Part shown: positions 11,054 to 33,968 of the stretch, in pieces
Layout of the letters: the number at the start of each line of letters is the position of its first letter
Numbering within the stretch: the stretch's first letter is position 1
Source of the DNA: a virus
Strand: one strand, 5' to 3'
Length of the DNA: 38,933 nt
IMG/VR virus record: IMGVR_UViG_3300045988_053496
Program-made: the position numbers and the translations under genes
The notes under the pieces: model-generated
Database searches by the model: none
Told to the model about the DNA's origin: nothing
Seen by the model: the letters and a program-made list of their open reading frames with translations, nothing else

Positions 11054-11055
11054 AA

Positions 11056-12009: not shown

Positions 12010-12013
12010 AAGC

Positions 12014-13450: not shown

Positions 13451-14146
13451 ATGCTCGATTACTTAAAAATTTTTCCGGAGTTTGAGACGATGCTCAGGCG
13501 ATATACGGACGAAGAGCGCGGTCGGCTTTTTATGGCCATGATGGCCTATGCGTATCGCGGCGAAGAGCCTGATTTCGATGAGGACGCGCACGAATGGTAC
13601 ATCTGGGACACGATCAAGCTAAAGATTGACCAGTGCGCCGAAACGCTCGAATCCAAGCGAGCGAGCGGGAAGAAGGGCGGAAGCGCCAAGCAGACCGAAG
13701 CAGACGCAAGCAAAGCCAAGCAGACTGAAGCAGACGCAAGCGAAACCGACATATATAAGAATAAGAATAAGAATAAGAATAAGAGTAGTAGTAGTTACGT
13801 ACCCCCTACCCCCTACGACGACATCGGCGACGACGAACTGCTGCGACTGCGGCAGGAACAGCAGGACGTGGAGACAGCCGCAAGGCGTGTCGGCTTGCCT
13901 GTCAGCGCTGCTGGCGACTATGACACCATGGACAACCTACGCGCGGAGCATGGAGCGGACAATCTGCTCAAGGCCATATCCCGGATTCAGGGCGCGACCG
14001 AGAAAAGCCGAGACTGGCGGTATATCTCCGGGATTCTCCGCAAAGAGAAAGCATCCGGCTACACATGGACGGAAAAACCGCCGAACGCATCAGGAGGGAT
14101 AAACTATGAACGACCCGAGCCAAGAAGCCACACGCGCGATCTCTGA
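13451..14146 (+). CDS. Replication initiation / replisome-organiser protein (DUF6291-like N-terminus, DnaD-like C-terminus)
   Basis: YTDEERGRLFMAMMAYAYRGEEP at the N-terminus. C-terminal SRDWRYISGILRKEKASG is DnaD-like. Immediately precedes the helicase. Confidence 0.7.
   Translation: MLDYLKIFPEFETMLRRYTDEERGRLFMAMMAYAYRGEEPDFDEDAHEWYIWDTIKLKIDQCAETLESKRASGKKGGSAKQTEADASKAKQTEADASETDIYKNKNKNKNKSSSSYVPPTPYDDIGDDELLRLRQEQQDVETAARRVGLPVSAAGDYDTMDNLRAEHGADNLLKAISRIQGATEKSRDWRYISGILRKEKASGYTWTEKPPNASGGINYERPEPRSHTRDL
13685..13741. repeat. Tandem direct repeat, two 27-nt copies at a 30-nt period, inside the initiator gene
   Basis: gccaagcagac(c/t)gaagcagacgcaagc at 13685-13711 and 13715-13741. 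Confidence 0.9.
13757..13780. repeat. (AAGAAT)x4 microsatellite forming an AT-rich island, followed by (AGT)x3
   Basis: aagaataagaataagaataagaat encodes KNKNKNKN. Confidence 0.9.
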
Positions 14147-19757: not shown

Positions 19758-20186
19758 ATGCAGTTGACGGAAGCGGACAAGCGAACGCTGCTTGACACGC
19801 GAAAAAAGCGCAAGGCGTATGTGAGGACGGAGGAAGCCTACGAGGAAGAGAAAGCCGCCTATCTGACGGCGCAGAAGCTCACGGGCATGCCGTCCGGCTC
19901 ATCCAGTGGTGCAGGGCTTGAAGCATATGTCATACGGCGCGACAAGGCTTTCGAGGCACTGCATGCCGCGAGCATGGCATACGCTATGGCGATATACGCG
20001 GCTCTGGACGTGATCGACAAGATCATCTTGCAGATCGAAACGCCGGAGAAGGTCAGCAGGGTGCGCGAGTTTTGCAAGGCGTATTTTATCGAGGGATTGT
20101 CCGTCACTGAGGCGACGGCGCGTCAAGGGTTGGCTGAAAGCACGGGCTGGGCGTACAAGAGGGAGATTATAGGCGACTTGCAGTAG
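19758..20186 (+). CDS. Putative late-gene transcriptional regulator (sigma-70 region-4-like HTH; ArpU/RinA-like position)
   Basis: ATG at 19758 after aaaaaggagg. C-terminal FIEGLSVTEATARQGLAESTGWAYKREI HTH. Located just upstream of the packaging genes. Confidence 0.55.
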   Translation: MQLTEADKRTLLDTRKKRKAYVRTEEAYEEEKAAYLTAQKLTGMPSGSSSGAGLEAYVIRRDKAFEALHAASMAYAMAIYAALDVIDKIILQIETPEKVSRVREFCKAYFIEGLSVTEATARQGLAESTGWAYKREIIGDLQ

Positions 20187-20432
20187 ACTTATAGAGCGGT
20201 TGGAGCTACACATAGAGTGCGACCGTGTGATAACATTAAAATCAGCGGAGAGCGCAAAGCGCAGGACGCTGGGCTATAATCAGCAGCAAAGCCGCGGCGA
20301 ACGTCACGGCTTTTGTTTTGGGGTGATTTGCGCTTTACCTCCGGCGCAGATCGGGACGCAACGCAACAGGGACGCAGAGTGGGAGCGGCGTTGATTATGC
20401 TGATTCAGGAGGATGTGCAGGGAGGCGAAATT

Positions 20433-21068
20433 ATGGAGATCAAGCGCGTCAAGCTGTCGGAAATCCGGCCATACGAGAAGAACCCGCGCAAGAATGACAG
20501 AGCGGTTGATGCTGTCGCCGCGTCGATTAAAGAGTTCGGCTGGCAGCAGCCCATCGTCGTTGACAAGGACGGAGTTATCATTGCCGGTCATACCCGGTAC
20601 AAAGCCGCGAAAAAGCTGAAATGCAAGGAAGTCCCTGTTGTATACGCGGACAACCTGACCGAAGAGCAGGTCAAGGCGTATAGGCTGGCGGACAACAAGA
20701 CGAGCGAGCTTGCGGAGTGGGACGCTGATCTGCTTTCCGAAGAATTGCTTGATCTCCAAGATTTCGACATGGGGCAGTTTGGATTCGATGATTTTAACGC
20801 AGACATTCAGGAGATTGAGGAAGCGCACGAGGATGAATATGAGGTTTCTTTGCCAGAAGAACCGAAGGCGAAGATTGCAGACATATATCAGCTCGGAAGG
20901 CACAGACTGATGTGCGGTGACAGTACAAATCCTGAGTGTGTTTCCAAACTATGTGAGGGGGGTACGTTGACCTTCTTCTTACAGACCCACCTTATGGGGT
21001 TGACTATACTGGTTCGACGAAAGAAAAGCTCAAGATCAAGAACGATGCGCTTGACGACGATTCCTTAA
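20433..21068 (+). CDS. ParB-like nuclease domain portion of a ParB-MTase fusion, truncated by a frameshift at a G6 tract
   Basis: IRPYEKNPRKND...IIAGHTRYKAAKKL is the ParB N-terminal domain. The sequence after 20962 (TLTFFLQTHLMG...) is out-of-frame read-through. Confidence 0.8.
   Translation: MEIKRVKLSEIRPYEKNPRKNDRAVDAVAASIKEFGWQQPIVVDKDGVIIAGHTRYKAAKKLKCKEVPVVYADNLTEEQVKAYRLADNKTSELAEWDADLLSEELLDLQDFDMGQFGFDDFNADIQEIEEAHEDEYEVSLPEEPKAKIADIYQLGRHRLMCGDSTNPECVSKLCEGGTLTFFLQTHLMGLTILVRRKKSSRSRTMRLTTIP
20957..20962. repeat. G6 homopolymer at the frame junction of the ParB-MTase
   Basis: gaGGGGGGtac. One extra G, or a -1 slip on G_GGG_GGT, joins the two frames. Confidence 0.9.
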
Positions 21069-21598
21069 AAGAAATGCTTGCCAGTGCATTTTCGGCTGCT
21101 GACTCCGTTATGAAACCGGGTGCAGTATTTTACATCTGGCACTCAGATTCAAAAGCACTTGTCTTTAGAATCGCGTGCCAGATGGTCGGCTGGGAAGTTC
21201 GTCAAGTTCTCATTTGGGCAAAAAACTCCCTTGTTCTGGGCAGAAAAGATTACCAATTGAAGCATGAACCGTGTCTGTACGGGTGGAAGTCTGGCGCTGG
21301 TCATCTGTGGGCATCTGACAGAAAACAGACGACGATTCTTGAATTCGATAAGCCGCTCGCAAACAAGGAACATCCGACGATGAAGCCTGTTAAGCTCTTT
21401 GACTATCAGATCCAGAACAACACAAAGGGCGGAGATATTGTTCTTGACCTCTTTGGTGGATCTGGAACGACCATTATTGCCTGTGAACAGAACGGTCGAA
21501 ACGCGAGGGTGATGGAACTCGACCCGAAATATGTTGATGTGATCATCGACAGATGGGAAACTATGACGGGCGAAAAGGCGGTGCTTGTTAATGCTTGA
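20957..21598 (+). CDS. N4/N6 DNA methyltransferase catalytic portion of the same fusion (shifted frame; first ATG only at 21074)
   Basis: This frame opens exactly at the G6 tract and reads YVDLLLTDPPYGVDY...HPTMKPVKL...VLDLFGGSGTTIIACEQ. These are the DPPY and FxGxG motifs. Confidence 0.8.
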   Translation, partial: GGYVDLLLTDPPYGVDYTGSTKEKLKIKNDALDDDSLKEMLASAFSAADSVMKPGAVFYIWHSDSKALVFRIACQMVGWEVRQVLIWAKNSLVLGRKDYQLKHEPCLYGWKSGAGHLWASDRKQTTILEFDKPLANKEHPTMKPVKLFDYQIQNNTKGGDIVLDLFGGSGTTIIACEQNGRNARVMELDPKYVDVIIDRWETMTGEKAVLVNA

Positions 21599-21755
21599 TA
21601 AAGCCAGAGAGCAACACGTCAAAAAAATTAAAGAACTGGAAGAAGAGGCAAAAAGCGCTGGAACTGTCAGAAAAAGAGACTTGATAAAAGCGATCAAAAG
21701 AATGAAAGATGAATTGACGCTGTACGACAGTTACCATGCTCATGCAAAAAGGTAA
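21591..21755 (+). CDS. Small coiled-coil protein (54 aa, below the ORF-track cutoff)
   Basis: MLDKAREQHVKKIKELEEEAKSAGTVRKRDLIKAIKRMKDELTLYDSYHAHAKR fills the gap between the MTase and terS. Confidence 0.45.
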   Translation: MLDKAREQHVKKIKELEEEAKSAGTVRKRDLIKAIKRMKDELTLYDSYHAHAKR

Positions 21756-21772
21756 AAGGGGAGTGCGAAGAT

Positions 21773-22264
21773 GTGCCGACGGTGGACTGGGAGCGGATAA
21801 GAGCCGAGTATATAGCAGGCGGCGCATCCATACGCAATCTAGCTGACAAGTACGGAATTTCCAAGGACGCGGTCGGACGAAGAGCGAAAGCGGAAAAGTG
21901 GAAAGAGACCCGCGACAAAACCGCGACAAAAGTGCGACAAAGGACAAATGAGCGCATTGTTGCGCAGAAAGTGGACGAAGCCGCGAATAACGCTGTTATT
22001 GCTGCAAGAATTCGGTCAAAGCTGCTTCTCCGACTGGAAAGCGAGATAGACGCTCTTCCCAGTAGCATCGGAACGGAGAGTGCAAAGGACATCATCAAGT
22101 CTGAGAAAGGCGGAGGAAGACGTGAGGTCATGTCGAAGCGTTGGCGGCTTCGCGATCTGACGGCGGCTTATAAAGATTTGACGGCAGACATGGACTTGGC
22201 GGATGTTGACACCGAAGACATTGACGCGACACGCGAAGAGGTATATGGTGATGAAGACACGTAA
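21773..22264 (+). CDS. terS: Terminase small subunit
   Basis: N-terminal HTH ASIRNLADKYGISKDAVGRRAKAEKW. Directly upstream of terL. GTG start. Confidence 0.8.
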   Translation: MPTVDWERIRAEYIAGGASIRNLADKYGISKDAVGRRAKAEKWKETRDKTATKVRQRTNERIVAQKVDEAANNAVIAARIRSKLLLRLESEIDALPSSIGTESAKDIIKSEKGGGRREVMSKRWRLRDLTAAYKDLTADMDLADVDTEDIDATREEVYGDEDT

Positions 22265-23549
22265 ATATGTGCCTGTTTTCAGCCCAAAGCACCTCTCGTA
22301 TATCCGCGCCTGTCGAAAAAATATGTACAACATCGCCGAGGGAGCTGTTCGCGCCGGAAAGACGGTTGATAATGTTTTCGCCTTCTGCACCGAGCTTGAA
22401 ACTTGCCCGGACAAGATACACCTTGCGAGTGCTTCAACATCGCCAACGGCAAAGCTGAATATCGGGGACTGTAACGGGATGGGCATTGAAGCCCAGTTCC
22501 GTGGACGCTGCACATGGGGCAAATATCGAGGAAACGACTGCATCCGCGTCAGGACGAAAACGGGAGAGAAGATTGTAATCTTTGCCGGAGCTGGAAAGGC
22601 AGACAGCTTCAAGCGAATCCGAGGAAACAGTTACGGCATGTGGATTGCAACGGAGGTCAACCTTCACCATGAATCTTTTATTCAGGAGGCGTTCAACCGA
22701 ACCGCTGCGGCAAAACTGAGAAAGTTCTTCTGGGACTTGAACCCAAGCGCACCGAATTCTCCGATCTATGAAAAATATATCGACCTGTACCGCATAAAGC
22801 AGGAGCGCGGAGAATTGCCGGGCGGCTGTAATTACGAGCTGTTTCTGATGCGCGACAATGCGACAATATCCGACGAGAGATTCGCGGAAATTGTCGCACA
22901 GTACGACCCACAATCCGTATGGTATAAACGGGACATCGAGGGAAAGCGCGTATCAGCCGAGGGCATGATCTACCCCGGTTATTCCTCAGCGCTCGAAACA
23001 CCGTTCACGCCGCCGCGCTGGCGTGATGTTTTTATTTCCATTGACTACGGCACACAAAACGCCTTCGCTGCTCTGTTGTGGGGCAAGAGCGAGGGCGTTT
23101 GGCATATTTTCCGGGAATATCGCTACTCAGGACGCGACACGCAGGTGCAAAAGACCGATGAGGACTATGTGCGCGACATGGAGCGGTTCGTCAGCGAGAG
23201 CCTGCCGGAAGACCAGCAGCGCAGCGTGATGACGATCATTGACCCTTCTGCTGCATCGTTCATCGCGGCGCTCAGACGCTCACGGCTTGCCTTCCGTGTA
23301 CGCAAGGCAGACAACGACGTGCTGGACGGCATCCGCGACGTTGCGGTTTGTATGCAGCGCGGAGACATACGGATTTTCGACAATCTGCCGGAGCTGCGGA
23401 AAGAATTTGACGGCTATGTTTGGGACGACAAGGCGGACGACAAGCCGATCAAGGTAAATGACCACCTAATGGACGCGCTGCGCTATGGAGTGCGCACCAT
23501 GCGGCTTGTCAAGCCGAAGGAAGAGTATAAAAGCCCATTTTTCGCATAA
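22245..23549 (+). CDS. terL: Terminase large subunit (PBSX-like family)
   Basis: Walker A AEGAVRAGKT. C-terminal nuclease-region motifs IDYG...DPSAASFI. Alternative ATG at 22251. Confidence 0.92.
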   Translation: MVMKTRKYVPVFSPKHLSYIRACRKNMYNIAEGAVRAGKTVDNVFAFCTELETCPDKIHLASASTSPTAKLNIGDCNGMGIEAQFRGRCTWGKYRGNDCIRVRTKTGEKIVIFAGAGKADSFKRIRGNSYGMWIATEVNLHHESFIQEAFNRTAAAKLRKFFWDLNPSAPNSPIYEKYIDLYRIKQERGELPGGCNYELFLMRDNATISDERFAEIVAQYDPQSVWYKRDIEGKRVSAEGMIYPGYSSALETPFTPPRWRDVFISIDYGTQNAFAALLWGKSEGVWHIFREYRYSGRDTQVQKTDEDYVRDMERFVSESLPEDQQRSVMTIIDPSAASFIAALRRSRLAFRVRKADNDVLDGIRDVAVCMQRGDIRIFDNLPELRKEFDGYVWDDKADDKPIKVNDHLMDALRYGVRTMRLVKPKEEYKSPFFA

Positions 23550-23564
23550 GGAGGTGATAGCCCG

Positions 23565-24938
23565 ATGGGTAGAATCGTCACGTATCAGGATTTCGTCGAT
23601 TTCGGCGACAGCGACGAGCAGCGCATTGCAGCTATCAAGCAGCTTATTTTCCAGCACAAGTCAAGCGAGTTCTGCAAGACGGCGCGATCCGCTGACATGT
23701 ACGACGCGCAAAGAAATGAAACCATCATGATGGCTGCGCCGCTCTTGTACGCGCTGAACGGTATGAAAGTGAAGGATTACACCGCGAGTAACCATCAAAT
23801 CGCGTCCAACTTCTTCCGGCAGCTCAACAAGCAGCGCACAACGTACTCACTCGGCAACGGTGTGACGTTCACGCGCGACGGCGTGAAAGAGAAGCTGGGA
23901 AAGGACTTTGACACCGATATTTCAAACGCGGCATACCTTGCGTTGATTCACGGCGTTTGCTATGTGTTTCTCGATGTTGACCATCTACACCGCTTCCCCG
24001 CGTATCAGTTCGCGCCGATGTGGGATGAGCGCAACAGCGCCCTGCGGGCTGGTGTGCGCTACTGGCGCATTGACGACAATCACCCCGGCTATGCCGTACT
24101 TTACGAGGAGGACGGCTTCACCGTCTACAAAGCCGAGAGGGGCGACGATTACAAGATTGACCAGCCGAAACGCGCGTACAAGCTGACCGTTCAGAAAGCT
24201 GCGATTGACGACGAGGAAACCATCGTCGGCGGTGAGAATTACAGTGGCTTGCCTATCGTGCCGCTCTGGGGAAGCGACTTGCACCAGTCAACGCTTGTCG
24301 GCATGCGCGGAGCGATTGACGCATACGACCTTGTATGTTCGGATTTCGCAAACGACCTATCGGAGTGCAGTCAAATCTACTGGCTCGTTGAGAACTACGG
24401 CGGCATGTCGGATGCGGATTTGGCTAAGTTCCGCGACAGGCTGAAACTTACGCACATCGCGGAGGCAGACACGCAGGACGGCGGGAAGATCACGCCATAC
24501 ACGCAAGAGCCGCCGAGCGCGTCGAGAAGCGCGTTCCTTGCGCAGATCAAGGACGATATCTACCGCAACTTCGGCGCGTTTGACGCACAGACAGTGCAGG
24601 CTGGAAGCAAGACCGCGACGGAGATCAACGCCGCGTATCAGGCGCTCGACCAGAATGCAGATGATTTTGAATATCAACTGACTGTGTGCATCCGTCAGCT
24701 TTTGGCGCTCGTCGGCGTTCCCGATGACGTTTTCCCAACGTACAAGCGAAACCGAATCAGCAACCAGCTTGAACAGGTTCAAATGCTGATGCTGGAAGCG
24801 ACGTATCTTGACAGACAGACGATCCTTGAGAATCTGCCGAACATCTACATTGACAAAGTACCGGAGATCATGGCGCGGCTGGATGAGGAAACGGAAGGAC
24901 GGTTCGTGCGCGAGGAATCGGAGGAGGAAACGACGTGA
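23565..24938 (+). CDS. Portal protein (SPP1 gp6-like)
   Basis: Size, position after terL and an acidic C-terminus. RBS ggaggtg. Confidence 0.85.
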   Translation: MGRIVTYQDFVDFGDSDEQRIAAIKQLIFQHKSSEFCKTARSADMYDAQRNETIMMAAPLLYALNGMKVKDYTASNHQIASNFFRQLNKQRTTYSLGNGVTFTRDGVKEKLGKDFDTDISNAAYLALIHGVCYVFLDVDHLHRFPAYQFAPMWDERNSALRAGVRYWRIDDNHPGYAVLYEEDGFTVYKAERGDDYKIDQPKRAYKLTVQKAAIDDEETIVGGENYSGLPIVPLWGSDLHQSTLVGMRGAIDAYDLVCSDFANDLSECSQIYWLVENYGGMSDADLAKFRDRLKLTHIAEADTQDGGKITPYTQEPPSASRSAFLAQIKDDIYRNFGAFDAQTVQAGSKTATEINAAYQALDQNADDFEYQLTVCIRQLLALVGVPDDVFPTYKRNRISNQLEQVQMLMLEATYLDRQTILENLPNIYIDKVPEIMARLDEETEGRFVREESEEETT

Positions 24939-26179
24939 AGCGCTATGGCATACCGTACAAAGGGAGCAAAAACGGCATAGCGCGGAAAATAGTCAGTTTT
25001 CTTCCATCAGCTGATGTTTTGATCGATATCTGCGCTGGCGGTTGCGCCATAACACACGCAGCACTTGAAATCTGTGAAGGACTTGCACCGAAGTGGGAGC
25101 GGATTATAGCGAACGACATTTGCGAAATGCCGTTAAAACTGTTCAAGGACGCAATATGCGGAGAGTATGCGGATGAAAAGCGATGGATTGATCGAGAAAC
25201 ATTTCAAAAATTAAAAGATGTTGACCCATATGTAAGATATTGTTGGAGCTTTGGGAATAACGGAACCGACTATCTATATGCGCAGCAGGTAGAACCGTGG
25301 AAAAAAGCGCTGCACTATGCGCGGGTTTTTGGTGACACGTCGCTCCTGCAAAATATGGGAATTGACGGCGACGGAAGCCGCGCAGACGTTCTGACGCATG
25401 AAGCCGAGTACAAGGATAAATATATTCGGTGGTGGCTTTCACATCAGAAATATTCCCCAGCAGAGCTTGACGAACTGATTAAAAACGTGAAAGCCGATGT
25501 CGAGAGAGACGAGGAAGAACTGAGGGCGTATCTTCTGAAAGCCTTGAAAACGTCAGGCTTGACGCAGGCCGAGGTTCAGCGTCGTCTCGGAACGCAGATG
25601 GCGGGGCATTACTTCGGGCGCTCACAATGGGAGTTCCCGACGCAGGAAATGTACCAACGTATGCAGGAGTTTATGCCGCTTCCCGACGATTACAATGAGC
25701 TTGTCGGATTGTACAGGCTTAGGCAAAGTCTGCAAAGGCTGGAAAGTCTGCAAAGTCTGCAAAGGCTGCAAAGTCTGCAAAGGCTGGAAAGTCTGCAAAG
25801 TCTGCAAAGGCTGCAAAGTCTGCAAAGGCTGCAAAGTCTGGAAAGTCTGGAAAGTCTGGAAATCTCATTCGAAAGATATGAAAACGTCAAAATTCCAGAA
25901 AATAGTGTGATTTACGCAGATATCCCGTATCAAGACACGGACTGCGGCAGTTATGAAGGATTCGACCATGAATCCTTTTTTAATTGGGCAGCGGAGCAGA
26001 AAACTCCCGTATTTATCAGCAGTTACAAAGTGGAGGACGAGCGCTTCACGTGCGTTTTTGAGTGTGACAAGCGATCTCTGAACAACGAAAAAGGTTCCGG
26101 GAAACTGATGAAAGAGCGGATTTATGCGAACGCGGCGGGGGTGACGGCACTTGGCCGATCAAGCGGTACTGTGGACTGA
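24935..26179 (+). CDS. D12-class (Dam-like) DNA adenine methyltransferase with an internal HTH-like segment and an in-frame tandem-repeat linker
   Basis: N-terminal YKGSKNGIARKIV and IDICAGGCAI match YxGxK and FxGxG-like motifs. Catalytic IYADIPYQ (DPPY variant) lies at about 25919-25930. GTG start overlaps the portal stop. Confidence 0.8.
   Translation: MKRYGIPYKGSKNGIARKIVSFLPSADVLIDICAGGCAITHAALEICEGLAPKWERIIANDICEMPLKLFKDAICGEYADEKRWIDRETFQKLKDVDPYVRYCWSFGNNGTDYLYAQQVEPWKKALHYARVFGDTSLLQNMGIDGDGSRADVLTHEAEYKDKYIRWWLSHQKYSPAELDELIKNVKADVERDEEELRAYLLKALKTSGLTQAEVQRRLGTQMAGHYFGRSQWEFPTQEMYQRMQEFMPLPDDYNELVGLYRLRQSLQRLESLQSLQRLQSLQRLESLQSLQRLQSLQRLQSLESLESLEISFERYENVKIPENSVIYADIPYQDTDCGSYEGFDHESFFNWAAEQKTPVFISSYKVEDERFTCVFECDKRSLNNEKGSGKLMKERIYANAAGVTALGRSSGTVD
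25715..25861. repeat. 9-bp tandem repeat array, AG(T/G)CTG(C/G)AA, 15 full units plus a degenerate leader, with a 45-bp higher-order duplication
   Basis: Units run 25727-25861. The block 25727-25771 is identical to 25772-25816. Translates to (S/R)-L-(Q/E) triplets, e.g. SLQRLESLQSLQRLQ. Confidence 0.95.
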
Positions 26180-27191
26180 TAAGCAGATCGAAGAGCTAGA
26201 GCGGCGCATCCGTGACGTGTACACTGACGCGGCGGCTGATATTCAGCGCAAGCTCGACAAGTTCATCGCGAAATTCCGCAGGGATGATAAAAAGTATCGT
26301 GCGCAGCTCGAAGCGGGAGAGATCACGCAAGAGACGTACCGCGATTGGCTGGCGGGGCAAGTGTTCCAAGGGAAGCGCTGGCGGCAGATGCTTGCCAGCC
26401 TGACGGAGACGCTGACGCATAGCAACGAGCTTGCTATGCAGATCATCAACGACACGACCCCGGAAACGTTTGCCTATAATGCCAACTGGTCAAGCTATGT
26501 GCTCGAAAAGGGCGCACGGATAAACATGGGCTTTGAGTTGTACGACGCATCGACCGTGAAGCAGCTTATCCGCGACCAGCCCGACCTTCTGCCGCCGTCA
26601 AAGGTGGATATACCGGTAGACAAGCGCTGGAATCACACGCAGATCACGCAGCAGATCACGCAGGGCATCATCCAGGGCGAACCGCTTGAGACGGTCGTGA
26701 AGCGATTGCAGCGCGTGACGACGGCGAACGAGGTCAGCGCAAGGCGACACGCGAGAACCGCGATGACCTACGCACAGAACGCGGGACGAATCGAAAGCTA
26801 TCATCAGGCGGCAAAGCTGGGTATCAATCTGCAAAAGGAGTGGCGGGCGACGCTGGACAACCACACGCGCCATTCTCACGCCATGCTTGACGGGCAGCGA
26901 GTAGACGTAGACAAGCCGTTTCAAAGCGAGCTGGGCGAGATCATGTGTCCGGGCGACCCGAACGCAAGACCCGCGAACGTGTACAACTGCCGGTGTGCGC
27001 TCGTGTCGTACAATCCCAAGTATCCGCCGCGAAATGAGACGCGGCTCGACAACATTACCCGCGAAACGATACCGTTCAGAACCTACGCGGAGTGGGCAGG
27101 ATGGAAGGAGGCGCACAATGGCGGGAAACCTGATCGACAACAGCGCGGCGTTTCTGGCAGGGCTGGAACGCGCAAAGGCGCGGGCGCTTGA
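26151..27191 (+). CDS. Head morphogenesis / minor head protein (SPP1 gp7, Mu F-like)
   Basis: RRHARTAMTYAQNAGR...ATLDNHTRHSHAMLDGQ...PGDPN....NCRC matches gp7-family motifs. TTG start. Confidence 0.88.
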   Translation: MADQAVLWTDKQIEELERRIRDVYTDAAADIQRKLDKFIAKFRRDDKKYRAQLEAGEITQETYRDWLAGQVFQGKRWRQMLASLTETLTHSNELAMQIINDTTPETFAYNANWSSYVLEKGARINMGFELYDASTVKQLIRDQPDLLPPSKVDIPVDKRWNHTQITQQITQGIIQGEPLETVVKRLQRVTTANEVSARRHARTAMTYAQNAGRIESYHQAAKLGINLQKEWRATLDNHTRHSHAMLDGQRVDVDKPFQSELGEIMCPGDPNARPANVYNCRCALVSYNPKYPPRNETRLDNITRETIPFRTYAEWAGWKEAHNGGKPDRQQRGVSGRAGTRKGAGA

Positions 27192-27540
27192 AACCATCGG
27201 TCAGAAAGCTGAAACATACGCAAAAGACAAGTGCCCCGTCGGAACGGTTGAAAGCACGGGAAAGAAAGGGTACATCGGCGGAACACTTAAAAACAGCATC
27301 ACTCACAGGGTTGATGATGACGTGGTGAGCGTGGGAAGCAACGTCGAGTATGCACCGTATGTTGAGCTGGGCACGGGTTCGCACTTCGAGGCACCACCTG
27401 AATGGGAACAGTTCACGACGACGCGGGGAAGCGGAATCGGTAAATCGTTTATGCGACCACATCACTATCTGAAACCCGCGATTGAAGATCACCGAGAAGA
27501 ATACAAGGAAATCATGCGAGACGAGCTGTCAGGAGGTTAA
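27118..27540 (+). CDS. HK97 gp10-family protein (head-tail/tail completion type) in an unusual position
   Basis: KDKCPVGT...GGTLKNSI...VGSNVEYAPYVELGTG...MRPHHYLKPA is the gp10 family pattern. Overlaps the previous gene by 74 nt. Confidence 0.75.
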   Translation: MAGNLIDNSAAFLAGLERAKARALETIGQKAETYAKDKCPVGTVESTGKKGYIGGTLKNSITHRVDDDVVSVGSNVEYAPYVELGTGSHFEAPPEWEQFTTTRGSGIGKSFMRPHHYLKPAIEDHREEYKEIMRDELSGG

Positions 27541-27542
27541 AA

Positions 27543-27713
27543 ATGGGGCTTATCAAGTGGTTTAGGCGCGAGAAAATCCGCCGTGGAGCGCGAAAAGAGA
27601 TCAAGCATGCGCGAGAATCCGCGGCCGGCACAAGGCAAGGTCAACGCGCACTGGCGCGGAAGATCGAGAAAATCAGGGCAAAGGCAAACAAGGAAATTGA
27701 CAAGCACCGCTGA
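27543..27713 (+). CDS. Small basic helical protein (56 aa, below the ORF-track cutoff)
   Basis: MGLIKWFRREKIRRGAREKEIKHARESAAGTRQGQRALARKIEKIRAKANKEIDKHR. The stop lies inside the terminator stem. Confidence 0.45.
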   Translation: MGLIKWFRREKIRRGARKEIKHARESAAGTRQGQRALARKIEKIRAKANKEIDKHR

Positions 27714-27733
27714 GAACAGCGGTTTTTCTTTTG
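27706..27733 (+). terminator. Rho-independent terminator inside the head module
   Basis: accgctg-agaa-cagcggt followed by ttttcttttg. Confidence 0.8.
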
Positions 27734-27810
27734 GCAAAAACGGCAAAGTACCGCCGTTTGCATATAAAGCGAAGGGCGAAGGACAGCCCCCGAAGTAAAG
27801 GAGCGTAAAC

Positions 27811-28416
27811 ATGGCATTCACGAGAAAATTCCTCAAGGCGCTTGGTCTGACCGAAGAACAGGTTGACAGCGTGGTTGAGGCGCACACGGAAACCGTTGAC
27901 GGGCTGAAAAGCCAGATGGCGGGCTACAAAGCCGACGCTGAGAAGCTGGAAGGCGTTCAGAAGGAGTTGAACGACCTGAAAGCAAAGGGCGGCGGAGAGG
28001 ACTACAAAAGCAAGTATGACAGCGAGCACGCGGCTTTTGAAAAGTACAAGAACGACCAGAACGCCAAAGAATCGGCGGCACTGGCCGAGCGACTGTACCG
28101 GGAGCAGCTTAACGCGCTGGGCATCACTGGAAAGCGAGCTGACAGCATCGTTCGTCTGACTGATCTTTCCGCAGTGAAGGTCAAAGACGGAAAACTGGAA
28201 GACGCTGACAGCGTGAAGAAGGGAATCCAGACCGACTATGCGGACTTCATTCCGAAGAAACGAACGGACGGTGCTGACCCTGCCGACCCGCCTCACAGCG
28301 GCGGCAAGATGAGCCGCGAAGAAATCTACAAGAAAGACGATAAAGGCCGCTATCTGCTTTCTACGGCAGAACGCCAAAAGGCACTTGCTGAAAGCATGGC
28401 GGCTGAATCCGAATGA
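27811..28416 (+). CDS. Scaffolding protein
   Basis: Coiled-coil, charged, immediately upstream of the capsid gene. N-terminal FLKALGLTEEQVDSVVEAH is typical of GP20-like scaffolds. Confidence 0.85.
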   Translation: MAFTRKFLKALGLTEEQVDSVVEAHTETVDGLKSQMAGYKADAEKLEGVQKELNDLKAKGGGEDYKSKYDSEHAAFEKYKNDQNAKESAALAERLYREQLNALGITGKRADSIVRLTDLSAVKVKDGKLEDADSVKKGIQTDYADFIPKKRTDGADPADPPHSGGKMSREEIYKKDDKGRYLLSTAERQKALAESMAAESE

Positions 28417-28433
28417 CCGAAAGGAGCTAGAAT

Positions 28434-29351
28434 ATGGCTGCTAAAACTGGACTGACGACCGCCGCGCAGTTTACCACCGAAGCGCGAGAGGTTGATTTTG
28501 TTACCCGCTTTTCCGACAACTGGGATGCGCTGAGAAAGATCATGGGCATCATGCGCCCGATCCGCAAGACCCCCGGCACGAAGCTGATCTCTTACAAGGC
28601 GACGGTTGACGGCACTCTCGCGGGTGGTACGAGCGTGGGTGAGGGCGAGGAAATCCCGTTCACCAAGCTCAAGGTTGCGCCCACGACCTACGGCGACATC
28701 GAGGTTGCCAAGTACGCCAAGAGCGTCAGCATTGAGAGCGTCGCCAAGTACGGCGCGGAAGTCGCCGTTGAAAAGACCGACGAGGCGTTCATCAACGCCC
28801 TGCAAACGCAGGTTCTGACCGACTTTTACACTTTCCTCGGAACCGGCTCTTTGAAAGTAACCGGCGAAAAGAGCTGGCAGCGAGCGCTCGCCATGGGCAA
28901 GGCAAAGGTGCTTGAGAAGTTCGCGGGCATGGACAAGGACGTGACCGAGGTTGTGGGCTTTGCCAACATCCTTGACGCTTACGATTATCTCGGCGACAAG
29001 GATATCACCGTGCAGACTGCCTTCGGTGTGAACTACATCGAAAATTTCCTCGGCTACCGCACTCTTTTCCTCCTGCCGACCAAGTACATCGCGCAGAACA
29101 AGGTTATCGCAACTCCGGTGGAAAACATCGACCTGTACTACATCGACCCCGGCGACAGCGACTTTGGCAAGATGGGGCTGAACTACACCGTCAAGGGCGA
29201 AACCAACCTGATCGGCGTTCACGCCGAGGGCGATTACAGCCGCGCCACTGGCAACATGTACGCGCTTATGGGTATGAAGCTCTGGGCGGAGTATCTGGAC
29301 GGCATCGCGGTTGCGACGTTTACCAAGCCCGCTGCGGCGGTTGGCGGCTAA
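28434..29351 (+). CDS. Major capsid protein
   Basis: Position after the scaffold, strong RBS aaaggagc, and size and composition typical of HK97-fold capsids in this module type. Confidence 0.88.
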   Translation: MAAKTGLTTAAQFTTEAREVDFVTRFSDNWDALRKIMGIMRPIRKTPGTKLISYKATVDGTLAGGTSVGEGEEIPFTKLKVAPTTYGDIEVAKYAKSVSIESVAKYGAEVAVEKTDEAFINALQTQVLTDFYTFLGTGSLKVTGEKSWQRALAMGKAKVLEKFAGMDKDVTEVVGFANILDAYDYLGDKDITVQTAFGVNYIENFLGYRTLFLLPTKYIAQNKVIATPVENIDLYYIDPGDSDFGKMGLNYTVKGETNLIGVHAEGDYSRATGNMYALMGMKLWAEYLDGIAVATFTKPAAAVGG

Positions 29352-29361
29352 GGAGTAAGCT

Positions 29362-29781
29362 ATGGAGATGCTTGAAGCGGTGCTGACGCACCTGCGAAAC
29401 TGGTTTCCCGTCAGGTGTGACGCTGGAACGTTCACCATCGCTTCCGGCATCCCTGACGTTGACTTTCTGAGGCCGGGGCAGTATTACCGCATCAGGGGTA
29501 GCGTGTTTTCCGACGGGCTGCACGTCTACCAGAGCGGCGAGACGCTGGCAGATGAAACCTTCAAGGGCGAAATCTGGGCGCTGGCAATCCCGAAAAGCGT
29601 CAAAGAGCTTGCGGTTGAAATCACCGCATACACGGAAAAGAACCCGGTGACCGACAAGGTTTCTGAGAGTTTCGGCGGTTACAGTTACTCCCGCGCATCC
29701 GGCACGACTGGTGCGCCGACGGGCTGGCAGGGGGCTTTCGCCTCCCGCCTTGCCCCTTATCGGAGGATAAGCGATGATTAA
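29362..29781 (+). CDS. Head-tail connector region structural protein
   Basis: Assigned by position. Contains the SESFGGYSYS motif recalled from equivalent phage genes. Confidence 0.55.
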   Translation: MEMLEAVLTHLRNWFPVRCDAGTFTIASGIPDVDFLRPGQYYRIRGSVFSDGLHVYQSGETLADETFKGEIWALAIPKSVKELAVEITAYTEKNPVTDKVSESFGGYSYSRASGTTGAPTGWQGAFASRLAPYRRISDD

Positions 29782-30133
29782 CGCGGAGCTAATCGAGATG
29801 TTTTCACAGCCATGCGTGATGCTAAAGAAAAAGCGCGTCCCTGATGGGTATGGCGGCTTTGAAACAAGCTGGTCGGACGGTGACAAGTTCGACGCGGCGA
29901 TTGTCAAAGATCAGAGTTTGCAAGCGCGCGTCGCCGAGAAGCAGGGCGTTTCCAGTGTCTACACCATCACGACGGCGCGAGGCGTTGCGCTTGAGTATCA
30001 CGAGGTTTTCCGCCGCGTCTCTGACGGGGCAATCTTCCGCGTGACGAGTGACTACACCGACAGCAGACCGCCTGACGTGGCGACGTTCGACTTTGAGCGA
30101 GTGACGGCTGAGAGGTGGGAACTTCCGACGTGA
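29774..30133 (+). CDS. Head closure / head-tail joining protein (SPP1 gp16-like)
   Basis: Size, position, and a pattern of KKKRVPDGYGGF.T.W followed by beta-rich sequence. Confidence 0.6.
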   Translation: MINAELIEMFSQPCVMLKKKRVPDGYGGFETSWSDGDKFDAAIVKDQSLQARVAEKQGVSSVYTITTARGVALEYHEVFRRVSDGAIFRVTSDYTDSRPPDVATFDFERVTAERWELPT

Positions 30134-30495
30134 ACGAGACGACAAAGGCACTATATAGCTTTTATTCCGGGTTCGGCATTGACGCATACCCGGAAAGCAA
30201 CGTGCCGGAGGACGCGAAACTCCCATACATCACCTACACCGTCATTGAGCCGGACTGGCGAAACGCCGCAAGCCATCAGGCGCGGGTGTGGTATCGGTCA
30301 GAAGGCTATAAGAAAATAAACGCCAAGGTTGACGAGATTACAAGGGCGGTTGGCGAGTTGCTCATGCTTCCGACGGCGAACGGCTACGTCGCCATTCGTC
30401 CCGCTGACCCGCTGGTGCAGTATCAGCCCATCGCAAACCCGGAAATCAAAGTCGCGTATCTCAATTTTCAAATCAATTCGTACCAATCGAGGTGA
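30130..30495 (+). CDS. Tail completion / tail terminator-type protein (DUF3168-like)
   Basis: Position directly before the major tail gene. GTGA start-stop overlap (alternative GTG at 30115). Confidence 0.55.
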   Translation: MNETTKALYSFYSGFGIDAYPESNVPEDAKLPYITYTVIEPDWRNAASHQARVWYRSEGYKKINAKVDEITRAVGELLMLPTANGYVAIRPADPLVQYQPIANPEIKVAYLNFQINSYQSR

Positions 30496-30500
30496 TATAA

Positions 30501-31127
30501 ATGGGAAAACCTGTTACGGCTGTCAGACCGCAGACGTTTGAGCGGTTGCAGCTCAATGCGGGTGCTTTTCTCAAAAATTTTGACATGAGCACCTACACCG
30601 ATTACAGCACGCTCGAAGAAGCACTTTTCGCCGCCATTAAGGACGGCACAAAGGCGCTGGGCGCGACGCGAGGCGGCGGTACGTTTACCGCGTCTCCGAC
30701 CATGCGCAGCATCGAAGCCGACGGAAAGCGGTATGAGTTCAAAGGCAGTACGGTCATTGATACTTGGGATATCAAGCTGACCGCGACGCTTATGGAGATC
30801 ACACCGGATAACTTCGTGCTTGCGCTTGGCACGGCTGAGAAGACCGAGGACAAGTCTTTTACAACTGGCAAAAAGACCACGATCAAGCTGCGAACCAATA
30901 TCGAAGACGGCGACTATATTCAGAATCTCGTCTGGTTCGGGAATACGTCCAAGGGGCTTGTCGCCATCGCACTTGACAACGCGCTGAACAACACGGGCGT
31001 GACGTTGACTTTCAGCGACAAGGGTGAAGGTACACTCCCGGTCGAGTTCCACGCATACCAAGACACCGTGGAGAACAACGATTACGCGCCTTGCGCGATC
31101 TACTTTTTTGACGAGGCGGCGCAGTAA
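30501..31127 (+). CDS. Major tail protein
   Basis: Position, size, the motif GATRGGGTFTASPTMRSIEADG, and a strong terminator after the gene. Confidence 0.8.
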   Translation: MGKPVTAVRPQTFERLQLNAGAFLKNFDMSTYTDYSTLEEALFAAIKDGTKALGATRGGGTFTASPTMRSIEADGKRYEFKGSTVIDTWDIKLTATLMEITPDNFVLALGTAEKTEDKSFTTGKKTTIKLRTNIEDGDYIQNLVWFGNTSKGLVAIALDNALNNTGVTLTFSDKGEGTLPVEFHAYQDTVENNDYAPCAIYFFDEAAQ

Positions 31128-31132
31128 CAACA

Positions 31133-31166
31133 CGCCGGGGGCTTTGCCTTCGGCGCTTTTCTTTTT
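31133..31166 (+). terminator. Rho-independent terminator after the major tail gene
   Basis: A 10-bp stem cgccgggggc-ttt-gccttcggcg (two G-U pairs) followed by cttttcttttt. Confidence 0.8.
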
Positions 31167-31179
31167 ATGAGGTGAGAAA

Positions 31180-31545
31180 ATGAAACTTTCGGAGATGAAC
31201 GGCGAAGAGCTGTCTGTCTGCCTCTGCAAAATCGCGGAGCCGATTGAACGGATCGGCTTTGACAAGAAGACGACGGAAACCTTCCAAGAAATCGCCGATT
31301 TGATCAAAAACGGCATGAACAACATCCAGCAGACCTCTATAATGATCGGCAAGTTCGTTCCTCTGCTGCTCGGCGACCACAGAGAGGACACGTTCGCGAT
31401 TCTGGCGGCAATCAACGGCAAAACCGTTGAGGAAATCCGCAGTCAGAATGGCATGCAGACCATCAAGGAACTGAAAAACGCGCTCGCAGACCCCGACCTG
31501 ATGGATTTTTTTACGTCGTCCGTGCGTACGGTCGAAAAGCTGTAA
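31180..31545 (+). CDS. Tail assembly chaperone (gpG analogue)
   Basis: Lies between the major tail and tape-measure genes. Contains a slippery T7 run near its 3' end. Confidence 0.8.
   Translation: MKLSEMNGEELSVCLCKIAEPIERIGFDKKTTETFQEIADLIKNGMNNIQQTSIMIGKFVPLLLGDHREDTFAILAAINGKTVEEIRSQNGMQTIKELKNALADPDLMDFFTSSVRTVEKL
31506..31512 (+). promoter_or_regulatory. Slippery heptamer T_TTT_TTT for a -1 programmed frameshift
   Basis: In the zero frame it reads gaT TTT TTT acg. The -1 frame is open from here to 31805. Confidence 0.75.
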
Positions 31546-31805
31546 CGGCGGCGATTTACAGGCACGGAGCACCGCCGACAATCACGACGCTTTCCGACCT
31601 TTTGGCAGATGACCGTCAAAAGTGGCTGGGAGACGTGTACAGCGCGAAGATGCTTTCCGCCATCTGTCAAGCGATGGGAAGCGAACCCGTGAGCTATGAA
31701 GAGTTTGTCGGGTTGGTGGAACAGGATAACCGAACGGGCCAGGAGATCATTGACGATCTGATCGCCGAGCACGAGAGAAGGAAAAAAGCAAGAGGGGAGG
31801 GGTAA
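31512..31805 (+). CDS. Frameshift extension of the tail chaperone (gpGT analogue; the ORF track sees only 31602-31805 from a TTG)
   Basis: The -1 frame reads continuously from the slippery site: YVVRAYGRKAV...LADDRQKWLGDVYS... Confidence 0.7.
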   Translation, partial: YVVRAYGRKAVTAAIYRHGAPPTITTLSDLLADDRQKWLGDVYSAKMLSAICQAMGSEPVSYEEFVGLVEQDNRTGQEIIDDLIAEHERRKKARGEG

Positions 31806-31808
31806 AGC

Positions 31809-33968
31809 GTGGATTTATTTACGCTTGTAGCCAAGATCGGCCTTGATTCGAAAGAATACGAGCAGGGTATCCTAAAGGCTAAAAACGATGCGCAAACTGC
31901 CGCTCAGAGTATCGGGCGCTCGTCCGAATCCGTAAAGAATGCGGCCAAGGAAGCAGGAGAAGGCATCAAGAACGCGACCAAGGGAACGGAAAGCGCGACG
32001 AAGACGACAACGGAAAGAAATAAGACGTTGTGGGAACGCATGTTTTCCGCAGTCGAAAGCAACGGAAAATCGAAGATGGAGAGCCTGAGCGCGTGGACGC
32101 TTGCGAAGGCCAAACTGCTGGCCGACGGGATTAAAAGCGCGTTTTCTAAGATTTTCGACATCGTGAAAAAGGCGATTGTGTCCTCCGCAGACAAGGAAGC
32201 CCTTGATTCTCTTGCAAGTCAAACGTTTGGTGAGCTGGAATCTGCCGCAAATGGCGCCCTTGACACGATCAGCAAGGACACAAACATTCTGGCTGGAAGA
32301 CTTAAAGGCGTTGGCACGTCCTCCTTCATGCAGTTTAGAAGCGCCGGCGTGGACGCGGCGGAAGCTATATCCATGATGGATAAATATGTCCGCCTCGCCG
32401 CTGACGGTGCAGCCGCGTATAACATCAGCGTTGAAGACGCAGACGTAAGGCTGAGATCGTTTCTGCGCGGAAATGTAGAGGCTGGCGATTCAATCGGTCT
32501 CCAAATCTCCGAATCTACACGCGCATCGAAAGCGCTTGAAGTATACGGGAAGAAATGGTCTGAACTCACAGAGGCGCAGAAACAGAATCTTCTTCTCAAC
32601 GTCGTTGACGAGATGTATACCGCTTCCGGCGTTATCGGGCAGGCGGCAAGAGAAGGCCACGAATGGGAAACCGTGGTCGGCAATCTCAACTCCGCGCTAT
32701 ACGGAATAGACGGAATCATGCCAAAGATTGGCGATAGTTTCAGAACAAATCTGATTCCGGCAATCGAAAAAGCGACGGCTTTTCTCACAGACGAAACAAT
32801 TCAAATGCGCGCCGGTATGCTTGCGGCAAGTCTGGCAGACGCGACGGGCTGGGTCTTTGACGGCGTTATTGATCTGCTGGACAAGATTCTGGCGTGGAGC
32901 AGCGGCAAAGAAAAACCCAGCGACACCGCGCAGGCGCTCTTTGATATTGCCAGCTCGTTTGGAAAAATTGCAAGTTTGACATTTGAGACGGTCGTCGGCT
33001 TTGTGGAACTTCTGTTCAACGGATTAGGCAGCGAGACGATTAAAAACGTTGAGAGCTTCCTTAAAAGTTTCAGCGAATTTGTTGATGACCCGATGTTTCA
33101 AGCGGCGGCGACAACGCTAATGGGCATGGCCGTTGCATGGATGGTGATGCATAACCCGCTCGTTTTGGTTGGATCGGCTATTGGAGTTGTCGTTACGCAT
33201 TGGGAAACACTCGAAAAATTTATTGACAACCCCGCTTTTCAAGTTGTGGCTACGGTTCTTGCTGGAATTGCGTCTGGATTTATCATTCTCAAAGCTCCGC
33301 TCGTTGCCGTTGCTGGAATATTGGCGACGATCATAACGCACTGGGAAGATATCAAGCGATGGGCGGACAAGGCGAAAACAGCGTTTACAAACTTTATTAA
33401 CACGCACGTCCCGGAGGGATTTATGAGCGGCGTGACAGCGGCGCTTGAGACAATCTCCGGGCTTGTCTCTGGTATTCAATCCGCGTGGAATACGTTTATT
33501 GAAAGTCTCAGCACGAAGAACATTCCAAAGGTCTTCGGTTCAATTCAAGAAGGTTGGGAGAGCGGCGGCATTGCTGGCGCGGCCTCTGCCGCGTGGGATT
33601 CCGCATGGTACAATCCCTCAAACTGGGGGAAGAACAAGAATTATGGCGCAGGACGCAGTTTCTCGACTGGCGGCGCGGGGCGCAGCTTTGCGACCGGCCT
33701 TGACTATGTGCCGTATGACAACTTCGTTGCCAAGCTCCACGCCGGAGAAACCGTCCTGAACCGCGCAGACGCGACGGCCTACCGCGCCGGAAACGTCGGC
33801 GGTATCAGCGCGGAAAGCATCAGCCAAGCCGTAGCCGTCGCTGTACGCGAAGCGCTTGACGGCGTGGGCGTGTACATGGGCGCGGATAGAGTGGGCGATC
33901 TTGTGACGCAGCGCGTGAGCCGAAACATTGCCAAGGGCGCAAGAGCTATGAGGTATGCAAACGTATGA
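31809..33968 (+). CDS. Tape measure protein
   Basis: Largest tail gene. Helical N-terminal half, duplicated hydrophobic segments at 33078-33362, Gly-rich C-terminus. GTG start after gaggggagggg. Confidence 0.9.
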   Translation: MDLFTLVAKIGLDSKEYEQGILKAKNDAQTAAQSIGRSSESVKNAAKEAGEGIKNATKGTESATKTTTERNKTLWERMFSAVESNGKSKMESLSAWTLAKAKLLADGIKSAFSKIFDIVKKAIVSSADKEALDSLASQTFGELESAANGALDTISKDTNILAGRLKGVGTSSFMQFRSAGVDAAEAISMMDKYVRLAADGAAAYNISVEDADVRLRSFLRGNVEAGDSIGLQISESTRASKALEVYGKKWSELTEAQKQNLLLNVVDEMYTASGVIGQAAREGHEWETVVGNLNSALYGIDGIMPKIGDSFRTNLIPAIEKATAFLTDETIQMRAGMLAASLADATGWVFDGVIDLLDKILAWSSGKEKPSDTAQALFDIASSFGKIASLTFETVVGFVELLFNGLGSETIKNVESFLKSFSEFVDDPMFQAAATTLMGMAVAWMVMHNPLVLVGSAIGVVVTHWETLEKFIDNPAFQVVATVLAGIASGFIILKAPLVAVAGILATIITHWEDIKRWADKAKTAFTNFINTHVPEGFMSGVTAALETISGLVSGIQSAWNTFIESLSTKNIPKVFGSIQEGWESGGIAGAASAAWDSAWYNPSNWGKNKNYGAGRSFSTGGAGRSFATGLDYVPYDNFVAKLHAGETVLNRADATAYRAGNVGGISAESISQAVAVAVREALDGVGVYMGADRVGDLVTQRVSRNIAKGARAMRYANV

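Follow-up and report, generated by a model that had tools for sequence, protein, structure and literature searches.

An in-frame repeat array in a predicted phage DNA methyltransferase gene

The 38,933-nucleotide virus sequence IMGVR_UViG_3300045988_053496 of IMG/VR, hereafter the window, contains on its plus strand an open reading frame (ORF) of 414 amino acids with a GTG start (positions 24935-26179) that is predicted to encode an orphan DNA adenine methyltransferase and that harbors a conspicuous tandem repeat array. Direct reading and a script-based parse of the sequence both reveal that positions 25727-25861 are made up of 15 head-to-tail 9-bp units, AG[T/G]CTG[C/G]AA, in perfect register, with variation restricted to the third (T/G) and seventh (C/G) positions of the unit. 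The array lies in frame 0 of the ORF and is translated as residues 265-309, a succession of 15 (S/R)-L-(Q/E) triplets (SLQ, RLQ, SLE and RLE). Its first five units form a 45-bp block that is duplicated exactly in tandem (25727-25771 and 25772-25816, spanning 25727-25816), a trace of recent multi-unit expansion. These elements had been reported in a preliminary description of the sequence, together with a DIPY motif at 25919-25930 (GATATCCCGTAT, residues 329-332), and all of them were found to be exact. The start at 25715 given there takes in a degenerate proto-unit, AGGCTTAGGCAA (RLRQ, 25715-25726), contained in the non-repetitive start of the helix that enters the array (YNELVGLYRLRQ, 25691-25726). 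Tandem Repeats Finder detects the array at 25723-25862 (period 9, 15.6 copies, score 210) as by far the top-scoring repeat in the window. Furthermore, a two-unit pattern yields 14 matches in the window, all of them within the array, compared to an expectation of 0.04 and with none of 100 shuffled sequences reaching that number, and the 9-bp unit does not occur anywhere else in the window.

The assignment of the encoded protein as a putative Dam-like N6-adenine DNA methyltransferase of the D12 class (alpha order) draws on sequence profiles and on structural prediction. Residues 8-76 score 31.9 bits with Pfam PF02086, above its cutoff of 22, the C-terminus is recognized by phrog_56 ('DNA methyltransferase'), and a profile of the family aligns both motif I and the segment encompassing strand beta3, strand beta4 and DPPY to T4 Dam. 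When the structure predicted with AlphaFold2 (AF2) was searched with Foldseek, the best 17 matches corresponded to EcoDam, T4Dam and Mcbe1 (E 1e-5 to 3e-3, probability 0.98-1.0), with low template modeling scores (0.28 for the query and 0.45 for the target) due to the large insert in the protein and to a model that is only moderately confident. The features that characterize the alpha group, namely motif I, a motif IV located after the target-recognition region and a Dam-type fold, were all recognized. Motif I, the predicted S-adenosylmethionine-binding loop (DICAGGCAIT, residues 31-40, 25025-25054), aligns to T4 Dam DLFCGGLSVS, and its residues D31, G35, G36 and C37 are invariant in an alignment of 53 sequences. 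Directly after the array, the region of strand beta3, at the 'motif III' position (ISFERYENV, 25862-25888; AF2 strand 308-311), aligns to T4 Dam KIIFSSLHFKDV, and it is followed by strand beta4 and the catalytic motif IV (VIYADIPY, 25907-25930), which aligns to T4 Dam FVYVDPPY and in which Y327, D329 and Y332 are invariant in the same alignment. Motif IV in the clade of the window enzyme reads DIPY rather than the canonical DPPY, with the first proline replaced by isoleucine; relatives alternate between DIPY and DPPY, and this proline appears to be dispensable.

The central segment preceding the array (residues 193-250, 25511-25684), predicted to be part of the target-recognition region, had been described as helix-turn-helix (HTH)-like. 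In support of this label, AF2 predicts helices at residues 193-207, 211-218 and 237-246, and the segment presents weak matches to the RpoN DNA-binding domain (E=0.0066) and to phrog_6952. No Pfam HTH domain was found in the segment, however, and the label stands for its helical character and weak similarities rather than for a recognized domain. Residues from about 127-222 onwards have no aligned counterpart in the shorter lactococcal and streptococcal relatives.

The methyltransferase gene is located downstream of the large terminase gene and is flanked on the same strand by genes for an SPP1-type portal protein (23565-24938; phrog_64, E=2e-47; PF05133 on a homologous contig) and for a minor head protein similar to MuF and SPP1 gp7 (26151-27191; phrog_595, phrog_2468 and phrog_115; PF04233 on a homologous contig). 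It overlaps the portal stop by 4 nucleotides and the start of the MuF gene by 29 nucleotides, and this overlap with both neighbors suggests that it is co-expressed with the late head genes. The position of the gene shifts among relatives: in contig L007 (5140-6227) about 1 kb is inserted between the methyltransferase and MuF genes, in a clade of 69% identity (L012-L019) about 2 kb separate the methyltransferase gene from the portal gene downstream of it, and in lactococcal phages of the 936 group (Skunavirus) it belongs to the replication module. No near-identical DNA was detected in cultured-phage records for the 12 kb around the gene (window positions 20000-32000), and a scan of GTDB genomes returned a single, distant match in Anaerotignum sp.

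Copy number varies between otherwise identical genes

The preliminary description had proposed that the array is a hypervariable in-frame segment, and had suggested comparing its copy number among relatives. This comparison demonstrates that copy-number variation is real and that the array is hypervariable. Among the 120 best database homologues, protein lengths step by 3 residues, and proteins that are 85-95% identical contain from 3 to 20 triplets. In four database proteins (P0002, P0123, P0130 and P0125), all 264 N-terminal and 105 C-terminal residues flanking the array are identical to those of the window enzyme, yet they carry 5, 8, 11 and 18 units, respectively, versus 15 in the window. 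The same is observed at the DNA level for contig L098, an independent metagenome scaffold that shows only six mismatches to the window over 9.2 kb (99.87-99.96% identity) but has 5 units; the resulting 90-bp difference in the array is the sole large difference between both sequences. Across 197 protein pairs with at most 3 mismatches over about 290 flanking residues, only 7 share an identical array.

Finished Streptococcus pyogenes genomes (strains MGAS9429, Manfredo, MGAS8232 and MGAS10750), which encode a homologue distant from the window enzyme, were used as a check on assembly. The S. pyogenes prophages Javan526, Javan493, Javan522 and Javan501 show no mismatches in the flanks of the array and present 8, 12, 12 and 16 units, respectively, so that their alleles are separated by whole 36-bp blocks. 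In all of the roughly 200 homologous arrays examined, differences consist of whole triplets and the reading frame is kept. Within one clade, copy numbers from 3 to 13 are all populated at similar frequencies and with no phase preference; the preference modulo 2 or modulo 6 that would be expected of a rigid helical spacer was not found. Likewise, the arrays have net charges between -4 and +5, a spread close to random expectation, revealing no constraint on charge balance. One exact 15-unit protein (P0004) was found on 7 contigs, in keeping with stable inheritance of arrays over short spans.

The array had also been thought to mark a recombination-prone site in the head module. The data lend this little support: shifts in sequence identity across the array (contigs L002 and L011) are no larger than those seen within the N-terminal half of the gene (L004 and L006). 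The clear mosaic junction falls instead at the boundary between the portal and methyltransferase genes. When the window is compared to contigs L003, L005-L011 and L094, the portal shows about 59% protein identity and about 75% DNA identity, and for the methyltransferase and MuF genes of these same phages, identity to the window rises to 90-97%.

The array is widespread and its peptide pattern is conserved

The presence of the array extends far beyond close relatives of the window enzyme. It was identified in the same place, with 5-27 units, in 80 of 80 IMG/VR loci down to 41% identity. When 1.84 billion representative proteins were searched with a profile, 4831 matched (977 at E<1e-30), and about 115 of the 150 best representatives display at least 3 strict triplets directly upstream of the pattern '..DY..V.I....V.YCD(P/I)PY'; these array-bearing representatives include short forms of 280-350 amino acids that do not have the central insert. 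Cultured examples are found in Lactococcus 936 phages, with 239 matching phage records overall, 220 of which correspond to Lactococcus phages, as well as in Leuconostoc phage phiLN12, Lactobacillus phage Lc-Nu and a Cylindrospermopsis virus. On the basis of these sequences, the array is a hallmark of a very large family of orphan N6-methyladenine (m6A) methyltransferases in phages and prophages. No description of the array was found in the literature searched, including two papers on 936 phages (PMC4190342 and PMC4759559).

Within any one array, codons are near-uniform, with almost no synonymous variants. Between lineages, on the other hand, the codon set changes, with AGY/AGR-CTG-CAA/GAA in the window and CTT-CAG, CTA-CAG, TTG-CAG, CAG/CGG-TTA or CAA/CGA-CTT elsewhere, and the encoded peptide remains polar-Leu-polar throughout. 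The central leucine is hardly ever substituted, and the residues on either side of it remain S/R/Q and Q/E/K from lineage to lineage. Together, these patterns point to concerted evolution at the level of the DNA repeat and to purifying selection at that of the peptide, the latter because codons differ between lineages while the peptide pattern is kept. Relatives that have lost the pure repeat show a hydrophobic power of 1.03 at period 3.0, versus 0.23 in shuffled sequences and 0.25 in a control segment. Power at period 3.0 in the segment ranges from 1.0 to 1.7, whereas that at period 3.6 does not exceed the level of shuffled sequences. Since these decayed relatives keep a hydrophobic residue at every third position, the segment is structurally constrained, and every family member examined possesses at least about 3 units or, failing that, a comparable period-3 stretch.

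Several unusual members were recorded in the course of these searches. Three distant relatives (P0345, P0299 and P0308) contain higher-order units, such as the 9-residue (R/K)CQDIERY(K/T), 'LQNCERLA(S/R)' and RIQSLESLE, the last with isoleucine in place of leucine, and the triplet array can evidently mature into longer units. Four long members (P0213, 687 amino acids; P0221, 768; P0261, 532; P0342, 549) match the profile in two stretches and are presumably fusions of the methyltransferase with other domains. The name '16S rRNA G966 N2-methylase RsmD', given to P0145 and P0146 by JGI/IMG, looks like a mis-annotation. Lastly, the homologue in Enterocloster phage CB473P3 (L082, 45826-46543) appears to be split over two overlapping coding sequences annotated as 'hypothetical protein' in different frames and has no obvious triplet array; the split could be a frameshift or a sequencing error.

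The array is predicted to replace a short helix of Dam-type enzymes

To locate the array within the protein fold, AF2 was run with the 53-sequence alignment on both the 15-unit window protein and a 3-unit homologue. In both models the catalytic core is confident and a helix starts at residue 253, running into the array, which itself has a predicted local distance difference test (pLDDT) score of only 33-49. In the 15-unit protein this region is predicted as helix-break-helix (253-271 and 287-305), followed by strand beta3, with an array pLDDT of 33-44, whereas in the 3-unit homologue a single helix (253-269) leads straight into beta3. The segment that follows the array aligns to residues 145-180 of T4 Dam by profile alignment. 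Given that the predicted helix runs into beta3 and that the post-array segment aligns to this part of T4 Dam, the array thus takes up the place that, in Dam enzymes, belongs to a short helix downstream of the recognition region. The models and profile alignments therefore agree with the preliminary description in placing the array after the target-recognition region and just before beta3 and motif IV. The comparison of long and short arrays by structural prediction, akin to the prediction with and without the array suggested there, was informative for the core, which is confidently predicted, and not for the array.

Two known repeat architectures were considered for the array segment and rejected. 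A canonical heptad coiled coil would show a period of 3.5 rather than the 3.0 found, and similarity to GCN4 chains falls short of significance (E=0.24). For a leucine-rich repeat (LRR), the sole Pfam match was LRR_14, with 14 bits against a cutoff of 40 (E=0.022), LRR proteins in the PDB matched at E>=0.5, and the array contains neither the asparagine ladder nor the LxL strand motif of such repeats.

Lactococcal relatives with different arrays were assigned similar target motifs

A comparison of the window family with the characterized methyltransferases of lactococcal 936 phages shows that the latter belong to it. Alignment of the window-family profile to M.Phi93II with hhalign yields a probability of 99.9% (E=4.3e-32, 299 aligned columns), and BLASTP of the window enzyme against the 936-phage enzymes aligns two segments (E=2e-5 and 3e-4), with 33% identity in the C-terminal part. 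The window enzyme has both features of the 936 alpha-family enzymes, a homologous catalytic core and an array directly preceding beta3 and motif IV. Read from their genes, the arrays comprise 7 units in M.Phi15I, 19 in M.Phi93II and M.Phi145II, and about 10 in PhiM.5.

On the basis of single-molecule real-time (SMRT) methylomes, M.Phi15I was assigned the motif CC6mAG, and M.Phi93II and M.Phi145II the motif CY6mAG (Murphy et al. 2014, PMC4190342), while a later paper considers the whole group to be CC6mAG-specific (PMC4759559). The alignment figure of the former leaves out stretches of 55 and 15 residues, which we presume to be the array. If helical, 12 extra units would add about 54 A, and according to the PMC4190342 assignments the target is still a contiguous 4-bp sequence. 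Because the 7-unit and 19-unit enzymes were assigned nearly the same contiguous 4-bp motif, the array is unlikely to be a ruler for target geometry. The change in target geometry that the preliminary description had envisaged, by analogy with Type I specificity subunits, is at odds with these assignments (PMC4190342) and with the presence of one recognition region rather than two.

Other repeats in the window

Three weaker repeats were noted elsewhere in the window. The MuF gene contains an in-frame 12-bp repeat, GCAGATCACGCA, in 2-3 copies (26639-26678), encoding QITQQITQGIIQG. A 27-bp unit is present twice, with 77% identity, at 33645-33698 (ORF 31809-33968, 719 amino acids). Within ORF 13451-14146 (DUF6291), just upstream of the DnaB helicase ORF (14106-15353), positions 13685-13816 hold a repeat cluster consisting, in order, of a 30-bp unit with 10-bp GCAGAC-type subunits (1.9 copies), ATAAGA (5 copies), and TAG (3 copies) plus TACCCCC (2 copies). 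From its sequence, this cluster looks like a phage replication origin, with iterons and an AT-rich stretch, embedded in an initiator gene.

Explanations for the variable array

Taken together, these data lead us to consider it probable, though by no means certain, that the array is a slippage-prone, length-tolerant helical segment that protrudes from the enzyme and whose drift is tolerated, acting neither as an on/off switch nor as a spacing ruler. The array is an in-frame variable number tandem repeat encoding an expandable (polar)-Leu-(polar) segment, inserted at the single helix that in Dam-type enzymes connects the target-recognition region with strand beta3 of the catalytic Rossmann fold. 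Changes in copy number greatly outpace point substitution; they always involve whole units and often blocks of 4-5 units. Whole-unit and multi-unit block changes are the signature of replication slippage or unequal recombination, either of which would generate the changes seen here. Turnover of the repeat may be promoted by the Red-like system of the phage itself, made up of a YqaJ-like exonuclease (PF09588) and a RecT annealing protein (PF03837) encoded side by side at 11029-12940. Because the flanks are unchanged over 3 to more than 20 units and there is no phase preference, the extra length cannot pack against a fixed partner; it would rather protrude as an autonomous element, for example a self-associating helix, a helical hairpin or a stalk, from which the chain comes back to the same position. 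Whatever its length, such an element would leave the recognition region and the catalytic pocket in essentially the same arrangement, thereby preserving the short target motif, and length variation would largely amount to tolerated drift of an element that is structurally required but insensitive to length. An on/off frameshift switch, which the preliminary description had contemplated as a change in expression, is excluded by the finding that every length change seen is a multiple of 9 bp.

Several observations weigh against a tolerated, protruding helical segment. The array was modeled at very low AF2 confidence (pLDDT 33-44), and its strict hydrophobic period of 3.0 residues, which is not that of an ordinary amphipathic helix or of a heptad coiled coil, may denote a structural element different from both. 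Salt bridges between E and R at positions i and i+4 seemed to be enriched in a first set (105 observed versus 79 expected), but in a retest with within-array shuffles on separate lineages two groups showed the enrichment, one lacked it and one had the opposite signal; not being reproducible across lineages, the signal was rejected because it could be attributed to inherited higher-order blocks. The 936 motif assignments were inferred from phage methylomes and not from cloned genes, and M.Phi15I differs from M.Phi93II and M.Phi145II at other residues besides the array. In principle, array length could have influenced stringency and thereby produced the contrast between CCAG and CYAG. Furthermore, many of the copy numbers derive from short-read metagenome assemblies, which are prone to collapse or break in arrays, and some database fragments do end inside the array. 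Finally, the persistence of pure, actively changing arrays in lineages as distant as those of Lactococcus, Streptococcus, gut Clostridia and a cyanophage is not explained by simple tolerance, and the variability itself might be selected.

This last point leads to the alternative of a graded contingency locus, in which copy number tunes the output of the enzyme (its rate, stringency, oligomeric state or stability) and variability is itself the selected trait, so that the population always holds variants in methylation level that are useful against hosts differing in restriction and in Type IV restriction. We regard this as possible but not probable. It would account for the extreme turnover between otherwise identical genomes, for the persistence of repeat-pure arrays across very distant lineages and for the restriction of within-array variation to two non-synonymous sites (S/R and Q/E), as if unit composition mattered, and it is in line with the CCAG motif assigned to the 7-unit enzyme and the looser CYAG motif assigned to the 19-unit enzymes (PMC4190342). 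However, these enzymes also differ at other positions; the similar frequencies of 3 to 13 units in one clade are what weak constraint would produce; and the occurrence of the 15-unit P0004 allele on 7 contigs implies that arrays are not unstable on short time scales. Its more specific form, a selected element whose in-frame changes yield activity, stringency or oligomer variants to hedge between hosts with classical and with methylation-dependent restriction, strikes us as unlikely. Rather doubtful, in turn, is an oligomerization module in which the leucine-rich arrays of two subunits pair with each other, for instance as an antiparallel helical pair, so that the recognition region of one subunit serves the catalytic domain of the other and array length sets the distance between active sites. 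Leucine makes up one third of the residues, Q, E and R favor helices, any length would be tolerated with unchanged flanks, and the uncertainty of monomer AF2 about this segment would be natural, given that monomer AF2 is often unsure about segments that fold only in complexes. The hydrophobic period of 3.0 rather than the 3.5 of canonical coiled coils and the insignificant GCN4 match (E=0.24) speak against such a module, as does the fact that Dam-type enzymes act as monomers.

The absence of a length preference, the very low AF2 confidence and the fast change of the array would also be compatible with a neutral, low-complexity linker, a product of slippage with no structural role that is kept only by staying in frame. 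Yet the leucine is near-invariant even though a single mutation would suffice to turn it into Val, Gln, Arg or Pro, lineages with different codons keep S/R/Q and Q/E/K on either side of it, and decayed versions retain period-3 hydrophobic residues, with no examined member below about 3 units or an equivalent stretch, which makes this reading improbable. The same conservation of the encoded peptide over differing unit DNA makes it very improbable that the array is a DNA-level element (iterons, a packaging signal or a regulatory structure) with an incidental coding frame. Such an element might be suspected from a perfect DNA repeat in the packaging and head module, but the unit occurs nowhere else in the window and the location of the gene is not constant: portal and MuF genes flank it here, the 69% clade has it about 2 kb ahead of the portal gene, and 936 phages carry it in their replication module. 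We give practically no credence to an assembly artifact caused by short-read assemblers collapsing or expanding a tandem repeat. Some database fragments do end within the array, as such an artifact would predict, but the array varies as well in finished S. pyogenes genomes (8, 12 and 16 units) and in lactococcal phages that were sequenced one by one (7, about 10 and 19 units), many of the variant arrays measure 36-72 bp and fit within single reads, and the 15-unit P0004 recurs on 7 contigs.

Significance and comparison with known systems

Orphan methyltransferases are a main counter-defense of phages against restriction, and the family delineated here is very abundant, with members in more than 200 genome records of lactococcal dairy phages, in prophages of S. 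pyogenes, in numerous phages of the gut and in a cyanophage. The core idea of the preliminary description, a hypervariable in-frame linker in a methyltransferase, is hence far more general than a single gene. If array length affects activity or stringency, it would constitute a new route to diversify methylation that is graded and in frame rather than ON/OFF. If it has no effect, the array would still serve as a fast marker for typing phage and prophage strains, as a known reason why these genes are mis-clustered and assemblies break in them, and as a natural example of an enzyme that tolerates an approximately 10-fold change in the length of an internal segment. In-frame repeat polymorphism is known in restriction-modification proteins; within the literature searched, its location, unit and family are new here.

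The closest parallels are the 936-phage enzymes M.Phi15I, M.Phi93II and M.Phi145II, which are likewise phage-borne orphan m6A enzymes and share with the window enzyme the catalytic core, the order of motifs and a 9-bp-unit array encoding polar-Leu-polar triplets directly upstream of 'SY..F..V...ILYLDPPY', the length of which differs between phages. They differ from it in having no aligned counterpart of window residues from about 127-222 and beyond, including the HTH-like part; in their unit, (Q/R)L(Q/E) from CRA-CTT-SAA instead of (S/R)L(Q/E) from AGK-CTG-SAA; and in combining DPPY with a location in the replication module, compared to DIPY in the head module. With T4 Dam, E. coli Dam and DpnM, alpha-group enzymes of the D12 class whose structures have been solved, the window enzyme shares the predicted fold and the succession of motif I, target-recognition region, helix, beta3, and beta4 with motif IV. 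In contrast, the helix of Dam enzymes is short, fixed and non-repetitive where the window family has an expandable array, the recognition region is much larger in the window enzyme, and overall sequence similarity is marginal (E about 2e-5).

In the HsdS subunits of the Type I systems EcoR124I and EcoR124II, the central conserved region holds two and three copies, respectively, of a 12-bp repeat encoding 4 residues. This repeat is a coiled-coil spacer between two target-recognition domains, and the additional copy lengthens the non-specific spacer of the bipartite target by 1 bp. As in HsdS, the window family presents short in-frame tandem repeats in a DNA-recognition protein of restriction-modification, with copy changes through slippage or recombination that keep the protein functional, but the window enzyme has a single recognition region rather than two, and copy number in its family runs from 3 to more than 25. 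Phasevarions, in Type III mod genes and others, have repeats of 1-5 bp, not multiples of 3, that turn expression ON or OFF by frameshift. They resemble the window family in placing hypermutable simple repeats inside a methyltransferase gene, with heritable heterogeneity in the population, and depart from it in their frameshifts, every variant of the 9-bp unit seen here being in frame. A further likeness is found in block 2 of Plasmodium falciparum MSP1 (PMC2770483), in which arrays of 3-residue units also vary in copy number, unit type and order between similar alleles; MSP1 block 2, however, belongs to a surface antigen under immune selection, whereas the array described here lies inside an intracellular enzyme and has an invariant central leucine.

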